A DNA stretch of 64,000 bases from the sequence record OR539219.1; one strand, written 5' to 3'. The stretch comes from Escherichia phage vB-Eco-KMB39. This document shows, one piece after another, positions 4,535 through 42,298 of the stretch (position 1 is its first letter; each line of letters begins with the position of its first letter). Position numbers and translations under genes: made by a program. The notes beneath the pieces were generated by a model. The model did no database searches, had not been told where the DNA came from, and was given only the letters and a program-made list of their open reading frames with translations.

Positions 4535-6043
4535 ATGGATATTAAAGTACATTTTCACGACTTCAGTCATGTACGCATCGATTGTGAAGAGAGCACGTTC
4601 CACGAATTAAGAGATTTCTTTTCGTTTGAGGCAGATGGATATAGGTTTAATCCTCGCTTCAGATATGGCAACTGGGATGGACGAATCCGTCTTTTAGATT
4701 ATAATCGTCTTCTTCCGTTCGGCTTAGTCGGGCAAATTAAAAAGTTCTGCGATAACTTTGGCTATAAAGCCTGGATTGACCCTCAAATTAATGAAAAAGA
4801 AGAATTATCAAGAAAAGATTTTGATGAATGGCTTTCTAAATTAGAAATCTATTCAGGAAATAAAAGAATTGAACCACACTGGTATCAAAAAGATGCAGTG
4901 TTCGAAGGATTAGTTAATCGTCGCAGAATTCTTAATCTTCCAACATCCGCAGGTAAATCTTTAATTCAAGCTTTGCTTGCACGTTATTATTTGGAAAATT
5001 ATGAAGGTAAAATTCTTATCATTGTTCCAACAACTGCTCTGACAACTCAGATGGCTGATGACTTTGTTGACTATCGTTTATTCAGTCATGCAATGATAAA
5101 GAAAATCGGCGGCGGAGCATCAAAAGATGATAAATATAAAAATGATGCACCAGTCGTCGTTGGTACATGGCAAACTGTAGTTAAACAACCGAAAGAATGG
5201 TTCTCACAGTTTGGAATGATGATGAATGATGAATGTCATCTTGCTACAGGAAAAAGTATTTCATCTATCATATCAGGATTAAATAACTGTATGTTTAAAT
5301 TTGGTCTATCAGGTTCATTACGTGATGGCAAAGCCAATATCATGCAGTATGTTGGAATGTTTGGTGAAATATTTAAACCAGTAACGACTTCTAAATTAAT
5401 GGAAGATGGACAAGTAACTGAGCTAAAAATTAATAGTATTTTTCTTCGCTATCCCGATGAGTTCACTACTAAATTAAAGGGAAAAACTTACCAAGAAGAA
5501 ATAAAAATTATTACTGGACTCAGTAAAAGAAATAAATGGATTGCTAAATTAGCTATTAAACTTGCACAAAAAGATGAAAACGCTTTTGTCATGTTTAAGC
5601 ATGTATCACATGGTAAAGCTATTTTCGATTTAATTAAAAATGAATACGATAAAGTTTATTACGTATCAGGGGAAGTTGATACCGAAACACGCAACGTAAT
5701 GAAAACCCTAGCTGAAAACGGTAAAGGAATAATTATAGTAGCTAGTTATGGTGTATTTTCTACTGGTATTTCAGTTAAAAATCTGCATCACGTTGTTTTA
5801 GCGCACGGTGTTAAATCAAAAATCATTGTATTACAAACAATCGGTCGTGTATTACGTAAGCATGGTTCTAAGACAATAGCAACAGTCTGGGATCTTATAG
5901 ATGACGCGGGCGTAGTTTCTAAATCAAAAACATCTTCTAAAAAATACTCGCATTTAAACTATCTTTTAAAACATGGACTTGATCGTATTCAGCGTTATGC
6001 TGATGAAAAGTTTAATTATGTGATGAAAGAGGTTAAACTTTGA
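4535..6043 (+). CDS. uvsW: UvsW RNA-DNA and DNA helicase
   Basis: 502 aa; SF2 helicase motifs (Walker A region PTSAGKS, DECH box MMMNDECHLA); sequence matches recalled T4 UvsW. Confidence 0.92.
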   Translation: MDIKVHFHDFSHVRIDCEESTFHELRDFFSFEADGYRFNPRFRYGNWDGRIRLLDYNRLLPFGLVGQIKKFCDNFGYKAWIDPQINEKEELSRKDFDEWLSKLEIYSGNKRIEPHWYQKDAVFEGLVNRRRILNLPTSAGKSLIQALLARYYLENYEGKILIIVPTTALTTQMADDFVDYRLFSHAMIKKIGGGASKDDKYKNDAPVVVGTWQTVVKQPKEWFSQFGMMMNDECHLATGKSISSIISGLNNCMFKFGLSGSLRDGKANIMQYVGMFGEIFKPVTTSKLMEDGQVTELKINSIFLRYPDEFTTKLKGKTYQEEIKIITGLSKRNKWIAKLAIKLAQKDENAFVMFKHVSHGKAIFDLIKNEYDKVYYVSGEVDTETRNVMKTLAENGKGIIIVASYGVFSTGISVKNLHHVVLAHGVKSKIIVLQTIGRVLRKHGSKTIATVWDLIDDAGVVSKSKTSSKKYSHLNYLLKHGLDRIQRYADEKFNYVMKEVKL

Positions 6044-36603: not shown

Positions 36604-36920
36604 AAGTCCTCAACTTGAAAATCGTCTTTAAACAATCGGTTAACTATATGAGCTATTATATCACCATGACACGGCTTTGGTTTACATGTGCATCCTAGCC
36701 TCATTCCACGTAAAGGCTCTAAATGTGCTTTAGTTATTTCTCCGGATTTAATTCGACGTATAAAATCTTTTTTGAATAATTCAATGGCAGCCTCCCGGCT
36801 GCCAGCATCTTTACCGACGTAATTTCCCCAAAATGTACCACGGTGAATATTAACATCAAAGTCGGATTTATATTTATTCACTACCTGGCATAGACGGCCC
36901 GCGCGGTGATAATTCGTCAT
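36594..36920 (-). CDS. Hypothetical Cys-rich protein (position of T4 nrdA.1)
   Basis: 108 aa ORF; [11 protein letters not shown] motif. Confidence 0.55.
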
Positions 36921-37149
36921 ATTGTTTTTCCGTTAAAACAGTAATATCATAGTAACAATCTGAAGAAGTTTTAACTGTAGAAATTTTATTATCAAAATAC
37001 TCACGAGTCATTTTATGAGTATAATATTTTTTGCCATAAATGATAATAGGCTGATTTGGTCCTGGAACTTCTAACTCACTTGGGTTAGGAAGTGTAAAAA
37101 GAACTACACCAGAAGTATCTTTAAATCGTAAAATCATATATCCTCGCAA
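36874..37149 (-). CDS. Hypothetical protein (position of T4 nrdA.2)
   Basis: 91 aa ORF. Confidence 0.55.
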
Positions 37150-37160
37150 TTAATAATTAA

Positions 37161-37472
37161 TTACACCGCCATTTTTCCTTTAATAGGAGGGTGTGATTCG
37201 TAACCTTTAAGAACGAAATCTTTAGGCCTGAGTTTAAGAACATATTTTAATTGTTCTTTAGTAGAAAGATGACGGAATTTATAAGGCAATCCGCCTATTA
37301 CCAGTTCACAAAGCTCTTTAGGTTCACGACGTAAAATTTCTTTACATTGTTCAACGTGATTCATATAGATATGAGTATTACCGCCAGAAAATATCAAATC
37401 TCCAGGAATAAGATTACACATCTTAGCTACAATATGAATTAACGCAGCATATGATGCAATATTAAACGGTAG
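37161..37472 (-). CDS. td: Thymidylate synthase, exon 2
   Basis: Exon 2 encodes LPFNIASYAALIHIVAKMCNLIPGDLIFSGGNTHIYMNH...; joins exon 1 in frame after the intron. Confidence 0.9.
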   Translation of the reverse strand, partial: LPFNIASYAALIHIVAKMCNLIPGDLIFSGGNTHIYMNHVEQCKEILRREPKELCELVIGGLPYKFRHLSTKEQLKYVLKLRPKDFVLKGYESHPPIKGKMAV

Positions 37473-38488
37473 CATTATGTTCAGATAAGGTCGTTAATCT
37501 TACCCCGGAATTATATCCAGCTGCATGTCACCATGCAGAGCAGACTATATCTCCAACTTGTTAAAGCAAGTTGTCTATCGTTTCGAGTCACTTGACCCTA
37601 CTCCCAAAAGGGATAGTCGTTAGGCATTTATGTAGAACCAATTCCATTTATCAGATTTTACACGATAAGTAACTAATCCAGACGAAATTTTAAAATGTCT
37701 AGCTGCATCTGCTGCACAATCAAAAATAACCCCATCACATGAAATCTTTTTAATATTACTAGGCTTTTTACCTTTCATCTTTTCTGATATTTTAGATTTA
37801 GTTATGTCTGAATGCTTATGATTAAAGAATGAATTATTTTCACCTGAACGATTTCTGCATTTACTACAAGTATAAGCAGAAGTTTGTATGCGAACACCGC
37901 ACTTACAAAACTTATGGGTTTCTGGATTCCAACGTCCGTTTTTACTTCCGGGTTTACTGTAAAGAGCTTTCCGACCATCAGATCCAAGTTTAAGCATCTT
38001 AGCTTTAACAGTTTCAGAACGTTTCTTAATAATTTCTTCTTTTAATGGATGCGTAGAACATGTATCACCAAACGTTGCATCAGCAATATTGTATCCATTA
38101 ATTTTAGAATTAAGCTCTTTAATCCAAAAATTTTCTCGTTCAATAATCAAATCTTTCTCATATGGAATTTCTTCCAAAATAGAACATTCAAACACATTAC
38201 CATGTTTGTTAAAAGACCTCTGAAGTTTTATAGAAGAATGGCATCCTTTTTCTAAATCTTTAAAATGCCTCTTCCATCTCTTTTCAAAATCTTTAGCACT
38301 TCCTACATATACTTTATTGTTTAAAGTATTTTTAATCTGATAAATTCCGCTTTTCATAAATACCTCTTTAAATATAGAAGTATTTATTAAAGGGCAGTCC
38401 TACAATTTAGCACGGGATTGTCTACTAGAGAGGTTCCCCGTTTAGATAGATTACAAGTATAAGTCACCTTATACTCAGGCCTCAATTA
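37473..38488 (-). ncRNA. Self-splicing group I intron of td (1016 nt) carrying the I-TevI ORF
   Basis: 5' end UAAUUGAGGCCUGAGUAUAAGGUGACUUAUACUUGUAAUCUAUCUAAACGGGGAACCUCUCUAGUAGACAAUCCCGUGCUAAAUUGUAGGACU and 3' end ...GACCUUAUCUGAACAUAAUG match the recalled T4 td intron; exon 1 ends in U, intron ends in G. Confidence 0.9.
37620..38357 (-). CDS. I-TevI: Intron-encoded GIY-YIG homing endonuclease I-TevI
   Basis: 245 aa; MKSGIYQIKNTLNNKVYVGSAKDFEKRWKRH... matches recalled I-TevI; lies inside the td intron. Confidence 0.93.
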   Translation of the reverse strand: MKSGIYQIKNTLNNKVYVGSAKDFEKRWKRHFKDLEKGCHSSIKLQRSFNKHGNVFECSILEEIPYEKDLIIERENFWIKELNSKINGYNIADATFGDTCSTHPLKEEIIKKRSETVKAKMLKLGSDGRKALYSKPGSKNGRWNPETHKFCKCGVRIQTSAYTCSKCRNRSGENNSFFNHKHSDITKSKISEKMKGKKPSNIKKISCDGVIFDCAADAARHFKISSGLVTYRVKSDKWNWFYINA

Positions 38489-39037
38489 ACCCAAGAAAAC
38501 ATCTACTGATCGTTGATACCACTGCAAATCCAAATAGCCATTACGCACATTAAACTGATAGAACATATGACAAGGCGGTAATGCCATTTGCTTGAGTTCA
38601 GCTGGATTCCATGCTGAAACAACTTGACGTCTATCATTTGGCAGTTTTTTAATACGATCAATAACTTCTACAATTTGGTCTACACCGCCAAAATCACGCC
38701 ATTGTTTTCCATAAATTGGACCAAGTTCACCGCTATGGTATCCTAAATCTTTTGCTTGATTTTCGTAATTTTCATCCCAGACTGTTTTGCCTTGAATTAA
38801 TGAATCATGCTGAATTAATCGTAAATCATTTACGTTAGTACTTCCTGACAAAAACCATATTAGCTCAGCAATACAAGCTTTCCAGGCGAGCTTCTTAGTC
38901 GTTACTGCAGGAAAACCTTTAGTTAAATCCCAGCGTAATTTAGTACCGAACAAAGCAATTGTTCCTGTGCCTGTTCGGTCATCGGTTTCATAGCCATTTT
39001 CAAAAATGTCTTTAATTAAATCTTGGTATTGTTTCAT
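38489..39037 (-). CDS. td: Thymidylate synthase, exon 1
   Basis: 183 aa; MKQYQDLIKDIFENGYETDDRTGTGTIALFG...; active-site region ALPPCH; in-frame stop lies just inside the intron. Confidence 0.92.
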
Positions 39038-39082
39038 TTAGTACCTTATATAAATTATAATACATTTTATGAAGCTAAATAA

Positions 39083-39445
39083 TCAATACGGTTTAGCATC
39101 AAATTTTCTTTCAATTTCAGGCGTGAAATACAATTCTTTACCGCGTTTGGAAAAGCGACCAATAATATGATAATTATTCTCATCAAACGTAATATTGCCA
39201 ATATCCATAGCTTTCAACCAAATATCGATATTTCTATCCAGTTTTATATCAAAATTCCAATACGGAGAACTATTACCGAAAATACTGCAAGCGGATTCAG
39301 TGCAATAACTGCTGCTATAAATCTTGTCTTTGGGAACTACTAATTGATAGACGCCTTTGATAAACTGAGGACCCTGCCATTTTGGTTGTTTCGCGTCTTT
39401 TTCTAATAGAATAGGATAATAATTAAAGTTCATATTTTCCGCCAC
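39083..39445 (-). CDS. Hypothetical protein inserted between frd and td (not expected from T4 gene order)
   Basis: 120 aa ORF MAENMNFNYYPILLEKDAKQPKWQGPQF...; no recognised motifs. Confidence 0.55.
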   Translation of the reverse strand: MAENMNFNYYPILLEKDAKQPKWQGPQFIKGVYQLVVPKDKIYSSSYCTESACSIFGNSSPYWNFDIKLDRNIDIWLKAMDIGNITFDENNYHIIGRFSKRGKELYFTPEIERKFDAKPY

Positions 39446-39453
39446 GCGTTATT

Positions 39454-40041
<588 letters not shown>

Positions 40042-40284
40042 TCAAAACCCCCTTTCAATAAACCATTCAGTGGCTTTATTAGCGTCAAAGAATAATTCTT
40101 CATATGTCTTTTCTTTGTTTTCAAAGACTGTCACACAAACACGTTGGCATTCTCCACAGTATTCTTCTGACATACGCAAAGCATCAGAAAACATTTCATT
40201 AAATTCATTTAAATCAGGATTATACAATGCGTTAAAAATTGCATAATCGAATTCATCATTCATAAATTCAAATACAAAAATCAT
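40042..40284 (-). CDS. Hypothetical protein (frd.x series)
   Basis: 80 aa ORF. Confidence 0.55.
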   Translation of the reverse strand: MIFVFEFMNDEFDYAIFNALYNPDLNEFNEMFSDALRMSEEYCGECQRVCVTVFENKEKTYEELFFDANKATEWFIERGF

Positions 40285-40294
40285 ATTATTTTCC

Positions 40295-40537
40295 TTAAAC
40301 AGACTTTTTCACAATTTTCCAATCAGCTTTAAACTGTTCAACGTCAGAGTGGTAAATCCAGAATCCTGCGCTTTCTCCATCCTCATAAAGAGGGCATCCA
40401 TCGCATTCATCTTCCCATCCCATGTCACGTAAAAGATGTTCAGCTTTTTCAACAAGTTCAGAATCTTTACCTATGATATTAAAATACCATTTACCTCTAA
40501 CTTCTGAATCTTTAATGCTCTGGCGTTGTAATCTCAT
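40295..40537 (-). CDS. Hypothetical protein (frd.x series)
   Basis: 80 aa ORF preceded by early promoter. Confidence 0.55.
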   Translation of the reverse strand: MRLQRQSIKDSEVRGKWYFNIIGKDSELVEKAEHLLRDMGWEDECDGCPLYEDGESAGFWIYHSDVEQFKADWKIVKKSV

Positions 40538-40591: not shown

Positions 40592-40972
40592 CTACTTTTT
40601 GAAAGTTTTTCGCAAAAGTTCAATGATTTCATCTACATTGTTTTCGTCTACAATGCAGTGAATTTTTGTTACGCCAGAAATCTTGTCTTCGACTTCATCT
40701 TCTTCAGAAGTCGGTTCTTTATACTCACGAAAACAATGAAATTCGTCTTCACAAATTTCTAAAAGTCTATCTTTGAGGTAAAAATGCTTTCCATTTGCGC
40801 ATTCAATGTGTTTTACTGCTTTATATCCATTAGCGACAGAAACTTCTTTAACTTCAAACCATCCGCCATTATCTCGAATAGCTTTAACTATTGATGAATT
40901 AGAACGTGGGCTATAATTAATAAATGTATCAATAAGTCTTGGAACAAGTTCATACTTTCTACCAGTATACAT
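40592..40972 (-). CDS. Hypothetical protein (frd.x series)
   Basis: 126 aa ORF. Confidence 0.6.
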   Translation of the reverse strand: MYTGRKYELVPRLIDTFINYSPRSNSSIVKAIRDNGGWFEVKEVSVANGYKAVKHIECANGKHFYLKDRLLEICEDEFHCFREYKEPTSEEDEVEDKISGVTKIHCIVDENNVDEIIELLRKTFKK

Positions 40973-41016: not shown

Positions 41017-41247
41017 TTATTGTTCAATCAGTCCCATATAAAATTCTGCATCTTCAGAATCCATGCCATCACAATATTCATTAGCCATAAAGCGGGTGAG
41101 GTCTTCAAGAGGACCTTCAATGACAATAGAAAAATTGCAATAATTGGGATCATCATGAATACTTGTGATACTAAGTTCAGGATAACGATTACGAATAATT
41201 TCTTCAATATATTCAAAATCAACGATGTCAATATCAACTTTAGCCAT
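41017..41247 (-). CDS. Hypothetical acidic protein downstream of gene 32
   Basis: 76 aa ORF preceded by early promoter. Confidence 0.55.
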
Positions 41248-41392: not shown

Positions 41393-42298
41393 TTAAAGGT
41401 CATTCAAAAGGTCATCCAGGTCCGTGTCATCAGCACCAGATGAACTGCCAGAGATTGAGCTCATAAAATCATCTTCAGTTTTTGGTTTGAAGTCATCAAC
41501 ATTGAATGCATCCAAATCATCAGCAACTTTATCAGCTTTCTTAGCAGCAGTTGCAGCGGCACCGCCCATCACAGCAGTTCCCATAACTTGACCGAATTTA
41601 GTGCTCAGTTCTTCAAATGATTTGAATTTATCTTTAGAAGTCATTTCAGAAAGGTCAACCATTTGTTCGAACAGTTCTTTCTGGAAAGATTCATCATCAA
41701 TGTTTGGAATCGCAGATTGATTCAGGAATTTAGATTCGTCGTAGTTACTAAAACCAGAAACTTGTTTAACTTTCAGTACAAAGTTAGCACCTTCCCACGG
41801 ACAAGTTACATCAACCGGAGTTTCACCCATTTCAACATCAACTGCAATCATTGCATTGATTTTATCCCAGATTTTCTTACCGAAACGGTATTTAAATACT
41901 TTACCTTCATTTTCTGGAGCAGCTGGGTCTTTTACTACAAGAATGTTAGCCCAGTAAGAAGTTTTACGTTTAACAAGACCGTACTCTTTATTGTCAGTGT
42001 TATACAAATCATTTTTACTGATGTATTGACATACTGGGCAAGAATCGTAATCACCGTGGGTAGATGAACATGTTTCAATATACCATTTACCATTTTTCTT
42101 GAAACCGTGATTTACAAGAATTGCGAATGGTGCTTGTTCATCATTTTTAGACGGAAGAAAACGAATTACTGCTTGACCGTTACCCGCATTATCGAGTTTC
42201 AGTTTCCACTCGCCTTTATCTTCAGAAGAAAAACCTTTATTGCCATTCAGTTTAGCCATTTGTGCAGCAAGTTCAGCAGTAGATTTACGTTTAAACAT
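41393..42298 (-). CDS. 32: Single-stranded DNA-binding protein gp32
   Basis: 301 aa; [49 protein letters not shown]...; zinc ligands; acidic C-terminus; matches recalled T4 gp32. Confidence 0.95.

Follow-up and report, generated by a model that had tools for sequence, protein, structure and literature searches.

The frd-td region of phage vB-Eco-KMB39

The window examined here is the whole 64,000-nucleotide stretch of DNA from Escherichia phage vB-Eco-KMB39 (sequence record OR539219.1). It belongs to a Tequatrovirus, and Escherichia phages vB_EcoM_SP1 and 132 match the 701 bases around the open reading frame (ORF) of interest at 100% identity. Every gene of the stretch from gene 32 through td is carried by the minus strand (Table 1). 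The frd stop and the td ATG are 416 bp apart (39038-39453), and between them, as an earlier note on this DNA had described, lies an ORF on the minus strand, which the ORF listing gives as 120 amino acids (39083-39445) with a GTG start and the N-terminus MAENMNFNYY. Translation probably begins instead at the ATG at 39433, giving 116 amino acids, because this ATG is the annotated start in the GenBank record of phage T2H and the point at which homologues align with their N-termini. Plus-strand ORFs within the region are all 58 amino acids or shorter, and the codon-level conservation reported below was measured for the minus-strand frame. The overlap of frd and td that the note had cited for T4 is present in the reference genome (NC_000866), where the two genes share a 4-nt ATGA with nothing between them (td end 145112, frd start 145109).

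Table 1. Features of the window from gene 32 through td.
Feature	Position	Strand	Remark
gene 32	41393-42298	-	
frd.3	41017-41247	-	
frd.2	40592-40972	-	
frd.1	40295-40537	-	
80-aa ORF between frd.1 and frd	40042-40284	-	
frd (dihydrofolate reductase), 194 aa	39454-40038	-	TGA stop 39456-39454; T4 frd orthologue
Direct-repeat copy 1, TAAATGAAAtAA	39449-39460	-	includes frd stop and relic ORF ATG-AAA-TAA
Spacer from frd stop to td.1 ATG, 20 nt	39434-39453	-	read from sequence
td.1 coding sequence, 116 aa, 13.75 kDa, pI 8.5	39083-39433	-	stop included; in-frame alternative GTG at 39445
Spacer from td.1 to td, 45 nt	39038-39082	-	
Direct-repeat copy 2, TAAATGAAAcAA	39029-39040	-	includes td start codon 39037-39035
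td (thymidylate synthase)	37161-39037	-	exon 1 38489-39037; exon 2 37161-37472
td group I intron, 1016 nt	37473-38488	-	I-TevI inside, 37620-38357

The td intron was confirmed by joining the exons and by comparison with T4 and T2. The joined exons encode a 286-aa product with no internal stop, 277 of 287 positions are identical to the Td protein of the intronless T2H, and the td locus as a whole is 97% identical to that of T4. No Rfam family was detected in 36800-40400, not even the td intron, a miss that is likely due to the 738-nt I-TevI ORF inside it. Upstream in the operon, frd.1, frd.2 and frd.3, all present in T4, each have a Pfam family. The 80-aa ORF between frd.1 and frd has none, and 435 phage records contain it at 90% identity or more; T4 has a 71-nt spacer in its place, and this is a second small gene of the operon that is missing from the T4 reference.

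The ORF is a catalogued phage gene

GenBank already gives the name td.1 to this gene in T2H (AY262132.2) and T6 (AY262134.2), and the orthologue in RB14 and RB51 is named RB32ORF229c. Residues 8-116 of the product match phrog_1928 (E = 1.3e-33), a profile annotated as of unknown function. td.1 is therefore an already catalogued, ordinary phage gene and not a new one. A literature search found no mention of either td.1 or RB32ORF229c, and the gene is not discussed in PMC2790892, an article in which the records of T2H and T6 are cited.

Conservation of td.1

In comparisons with the orthologues of T2H, phage TadeuszReichstein and Mosigvirus OLB35, td.1 showed a dN/dS of 0.04-0.06, with dS reaching about 1. 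Its protein was matched by tblastn in 584 phage records, 362 of them at 90% identity or more (345 at 95% or more and 17 at 90-95%) and the other 222 below 60%. When 1.84 billion representative proteins were searched exhaustively with a profile, the td.1 family came to 21 genuine clusters with members of about 95-130 amino acids, whose motifs are still recognisable across genera at 25-30% identity. Two further long matches among the 23 clusters returned (P0021 and P0025) were rejected as repetitive reverse-transcriptase-like or low-complexity sequences. The family is small and is found only in Straboviridae.

It could be argued that a frame of this size in an AT-rich spacer is merely open by chance, or that it is a pseudogene in decay, given that its Shine-Dalgarno element is weak, that a relic start codon lies upstream of it and that T4 and RB69 do without it. 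However, an ORF with this dN/dS, recorded in 584 phage records and predicted to fold with a pLDDT of 91.4 (see below) is far beyond chance. The low dN/dS, the motifs shared by distant genera and the confident fold together effectively refute the idea of a chance frame or pseudogene, which we regard as extremely improbable. td.1 is a genuine small phage gene, and its codon substitutions show it to be under purifying selection.

Translation and transcription signals

In this phage td.1 has no stop/start overlap with either neighbor, unlike the coupled arrangement seen in other genera. It had been anticipated that the ORF would have to carry its own translation signals within the operon, and the 20-nt leader indeed holds a weak Shine-Dalgarno-like GGCGGA, with its GGA element, 4 nt before the ATG. 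The spacer between td.1 and td contains a good Shine-Dalgarno sequence for td (AAGGT, 39043-39047), a sigma-70-like TTGATT-N18-TATTAT and, overlapping the latter, a MotA-box-like TTTAGCTTCA (39070-39079) followed 10 nt further on by TATAAT (39054-39059). This spacer may be a candidate td promoter, one that T4 would have lost with the proposed deletion discussed below, and promoter activity of these hexamers is conjecture. About 32 nt of the same spacer are missing from the OLB35 allele, and a terminator scan found no terminator-like site in the region.

The frd-td slot in other phages

At least eight other genera of Tevenvirinae have diverged homologues of td.1 in the slot that separates frd from td. 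They directly follow frd in Kanagawavirus CIP9, Jiaodavirus PKO111, Gelderlandvirus Melville, Moonvirus Merlin, Risoevirus Cronus, Winklervirus Kc304 and several metagenomic contigs. A second paralogous subfamily, marked by an APTIxxYKRxPxKY insert, often adjoins the first; the two are related with an hhalign probability of 99.5%, and the second matches PHROG 1928 with E values of about 1e-36 to 1e-40. Copy numbers in the slot, as determined by local HMM scans of the family, range from none in T4 and RB69, through one in this phage, most Tequatroviruses and Jiaodavirus, to two in many genera (including contigs L026 and L027) and three in a single metagenomic contig (L016). Tandem arrays of two or three diverged paralogues are found, for example, at L016 2245-3288, L026 2501-3173 and L009 2574-3312, and some of them add an unrelated basic ORF of 68-76 amino acids just before td. 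In seven of eight loci from other genera, stop/start overlaps of -1 to -23 nt link the family cistrons to frd, to each other and to td; the remaining locus (L019) has a 1-nt gap after frd.

The td.1 genes closest to those of Tequatrovirus, at 62-65% identity, are carried by L026 and L027. In these closest outgroup contigs the gene order is frd, td.1a, td.1b, orf69, td, an order that suggests a stepwise reduction of the slot contents. Only one sampled family member is found away from frd and td. This homologue (P0020, at 1248-1577 of contig L008, a T4-like metagenomic contig) is flanked by a TM2/zinc-ribbon ORF and an RlaP-like nucleotidyltransferase gene, with regB and vs homologues nearby.

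T4 itself lacks the gene, as the earlier note had supposed: neither a six-frame HMM scan nor tblastn of the whole T4 genome detected a td.1 family member, be it between frd and td or elsewhere. The td.1-bearing state is the majority state in Tequatrovirus, with 362 records at 90% identity or more versus 32 with the T4-type junction. The label of accessory gene stands in one sense, since T4 and RB69 live without td.1 and it is to that extent dispensable, and probably falls in the other, that of a recent insertion, since the slot is occupied across genera.

Anatomy of the junction

In genomes that bear td.1, the frd-td segment is bounded by a 9-nt perfect direct repeat, TAAATGAAA, that occurs here on the minus strand at 39460 and 39040, 420 bp apart, with copy 1 spanning the frd stop and copy 2 the td start. 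When the next three bases are included, 11 of 12 positions match (tAA versus cAA). Copy 1 forms a dead three-codon ORF, ATG-AAA-TAA, that shares bases with the frd stop; td.1, starting 24 nt further downstream, is in the same frame. In Moonvirus Merlin the position equivalent to this relic ATG is occupied by the start of td.1a, which overlaps the stop of frd. In 39430-39457 (minus strand) the frd stop and the td.1 ATG each coincide with an ATGA motif, and the two motifs are exactly 24 nt apart; when the frd frame is continued beyond its stop, it runs into a second TGA, overlapping the start of td.1. An ancestral, longer frd, stop/start-coupled to td.1 as in L026, may have left this second TGA behind.

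Comparison of frd-td junctions, the check that had been proposed for this locus, found td.1 in T2H and T6 and a fused ATGA in T4 and RB69, the latter two having a single repeat copy at the junction with the core TATAAATGAAACAATACC. The T4-type fused junction is present in 32 records (T4 strains, T4T, RB55, RB59, vB_EcoM_112, HY03, SG1, G28, F1, JEP6, FN, FL12, FL18 and G2133), 31 of which are identical over a 54-mer, and the RB69-type fused junction is present in 127 Mosigvirus records, located at 5384-5387 of the RB69 locus examined (NC_004928, L025). A td.1-bearing Mosigvirus, OLB35 (L014), differs from both. The 3' end of its frd is 94% identical to the window and 63% to RB69, whereas the 5' end of its td is 91% identical to RB69 and 79% to the window. 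By these identities OLB35 is a recombinant, in which a Tequatrovirus-like frd 3' end and td.1 are joined to a Mosigvirus-like td, and therefore the td.1 allele also moves by homologous recombination.

Deletion or insertion

The earlier note had regarded the ORF as inserted. Given that family members hold the frd-td slot across Tevenvirinae genera, a recent insertion is probably not what is seen here. The best overall explanation, and one in which we place considerable confidence, is that td.1 is an authentic cistron that has long resided in the frd-td (DHFR-thymidylate synthase) operon of Tevenvirinae. The td.1-bearing state is probably ancestral, and the T4 and RB69 references carry a reduced allele. 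According to this explanation, the fused ATGA junction of T4 would have arisen by a deletion between the two repeats that removed td.1 together with its downstream spacer, and that put the td start in the place of the old frd-overlapping start codon, start to start. We consider such an origin of the T4 junction likely.

The direction of the event could be the opposite. The frd/td junction of the Tequatrovirus-Mosigvirus lineage may have been fused ancestrally, and a td.1 cassette may then have inserted into it, duplicating the td start region (TAAATGAAACAA) and leaving T4 and RB69 in the original state. On either side of the segment lies the 11/12-nt direct repeat, which takes in the td start codon and whose left copy is the dead ATG-AAA-TAA, and the presence of the same 12-mer at both ends could equally well be the target duplication left by an insertion. 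Furthermore, the fused core is identical in T4 and RB69 when the flanks have otherwise diverged, and the td.1 allele of OLB35 has crossed a genus boundary by recombination, apparently from a Tequatrovirus-like donor. A fused junction in two genera would, if due to deletion, require either two independent events or an old polymorphism. It is because of this occurrence in two genera, and because the repeat could be a target duplication, that deletion is held as likely rather than certain and that insertion retains some weight as a less probable account. Against insertion, the same slot is occupied by homologues in at least eight other genera, the td.1 of the closest outgroup (62-65% identity) is coupled to frd, and the relic ATG sits at the start position of Merlin td.1a. 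Regaining a family member at the exact ancestral slot by illegitimate recombination would be unparsimonious. A test for a mobile cassette found the 9-nt (11/12) repeat, but no mobility gene within the 420-bp unit and no known donor, in a slot that was occupied ancestrally. On balance, we consider insertion rather unlikely and prefer deletion from a td.1-bearing ancestor.

The suggested link to homing endonucleases was not borne out, as neither td.1 nor any of 24 family members gave any Pfam or NCBIfam match, GIY-YIG and HNH domains included. The label "putative homing endonuclease" that is attached to the orthologue in MZ501106 (phage TadeuszReichstein) was likewise rejected, there being no motif to support it. 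In this phage td.1 is accompanied by the td group I intron and its I-TevI, about 550 bp away. Co-conversion in T4 homing is reported to extend up to 2 kb (PMC2790892). Because td.1 lies within this range, I-TevI homing from a T4-type donor could spread the td.1 deletion too.

Predicted structure and possible function

Structure prediction, another check that had been called for, returned a confident AlphaFold2 model (pLDDT 91.4, pTM 0.83) from an alignment of 24 sequences, which replaced an earlier AlphaFold model on five sequences (pLDDT 70). Predicted strands cover residues 6-12 and 27-34, with short ones at 38-40, 49-51 and 63-65, and are followed by a helix (69-78), a short strand (81-83) and a hairpin (87-97 and 100-105). 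G27, G92, K96 and G98 are invariant across the 24 members, and Q16, W19, Y29, N80, F94 and F103 are nearly so; a QxKW motif and a hairpin with the pattern GRFxKxG are made up of these residues. A conserved arrangement of Asp, His, Cys or Ser residues such as would hint at catalysis is absent from the 24 members.

Searches of Pfam, NCBIfam and PADLOC returned nothing for td.1, no significant sequence or structure match was found in the PDB, and matches in BFVD were limited to uncharacterised proteins of other Straboviridae. A PDB profile match to TagH/TarH (E = 0.007-0.03) was judged spurious, the aligned part of this ABC ATPase being its Walker B and D-loop segment. Weak neighbors of OB type were seen in two structural searches, and OB proteins dominate the weak structural matches. 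The predicted strand-strand-strand-helix-strand-strand order resembles that of OB-fold domains such as S1, cold-shock, RPA and HIN, and td.1 is, in line with these domains, basic and rich in aromatic residues. The predicted fold is thus loosely compatible with an OB-like barrel, without this amounting to proof.

We tentatively read td.1 as a single-domain beta protein of 13.7 kDa, mildly basic and rich in aromatic residues, that has one helix and may act by binding a partner and not by catalysis. Candidate partners are single-stranded nucleic acid, nucleotides and proteins, either of the host or of the dNTP-synthesis machinery. Synthesis of td.1 would coincide with that of DHFR and TS in the prereplicative period, and the protein would be conditionally dispensable.

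A putative role in anti-defence or host takeover, in which td.1 neutralises a host factor found in some strains only, would explain both its dispensability in laboratory hosts and its presence or absence among close relatives. It fits a small, phage-restricted protein of the early region with no enzymatic motif, a presence/absence polymorphism within genera, and a copy number that varies through tandem paralogues, a pattern often seen in arms-race genes. On the other hand, the dN/dS of 0.04-0.06 indicates strong purifying selection and gives no hint of diversifying selection, the gene keeps its place next to frd and td from genus to genus, the PDB sequence and structure searches and BFVD revealed no similarity to any characterised inhibitor, and the literature search yielded no mention of the gene. 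We therefore regard this role as rather unlikely.

A putative accessory subunit or adaptor of the thymidylate cycle, bridging or regulating DHFR and TS or the dNTP-synthetase complex, is what the location would bring to mind, as nearly all sampled loci have td.1 placed between the genes for DHFR and TS, and the overlapping stop and start codons favor co-translation. However, tight overlaps are common throughout T4-like early regions, where they are the norm in operons, and therefore coupling of this family to frd and td is no proof of a functional link. In addition, T4 and RB69 make dTMP without td.1, and the one homologue located away from frd and td would count against a link to these genes. 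The adaptor role is, in our opinion, doubtful. More far-reaching readings, namely that the family represents an unrecognised fold serving as a dedicated thymidylate-cycle partner, such as a DHFR-TS adaptor, or else a new class of inhibitor directed against host nucleotide-directed defence, are improbable. The adaptor in such a reading could be likened to the linker of the protozoan bifunctional DHFR-TS. If one of them were true, td.1 would have gone unstudied for decades only because T4 and RB69 carry the deletion allele.

Significance and comparison with known systems

At this locus the T4 reference is unrepresentative of its own genus, lacking both td.1 and the 80-aa ORF, which are present in most Tequatroviruses, and the frd/td ATGA overlap of the textbooks is probably the scar of a deletion. 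Current understanding is not overturned by these findings. Nevertheless, td.1 is strongly conserved, is in many genera probably co-translated, through overlapping codons, with two core enzymes of nucleotide metabolism, and has no solved structural relative, making it a reasonable if modest target for functional work.

The closest counterparts of the gene described here are the td.1 genes of T2H and T6, with which it shares 97.4% protein identity, the same place between frd and td, the flanking repeat and the spacers. The differences amount to a one-residue indel and a couple of substitutions in a low-confidence loop (YSSSYCTE in this phage versus YSSCFTE), and to the td intron with I-TevI, which T2 has td.1 without. 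At the level of the family, PHROG 1928 is a profile common to td.1 and the second paralogous subfamily, and being without functional annotation it gives no mechanism. The fused junctions of T4 and RB69 have the same flanking genes as the locus in this phage, and their shared core corresponds to one repeat copy here; unlike in T4 and RB69, the two copies here are separated by 420 bp, made up of td.1, its 20-nt leader and its 45-nt trailer. In classic studies of the rII region, T4 deletions reportedly occurred between short direct repeats. The proposed deletion resembles these in that its end-points lie at a 9-nt perfect direct repeat of which one copy is kept, and differs from them in that the event is deduced here from a comparison of natural alleles.
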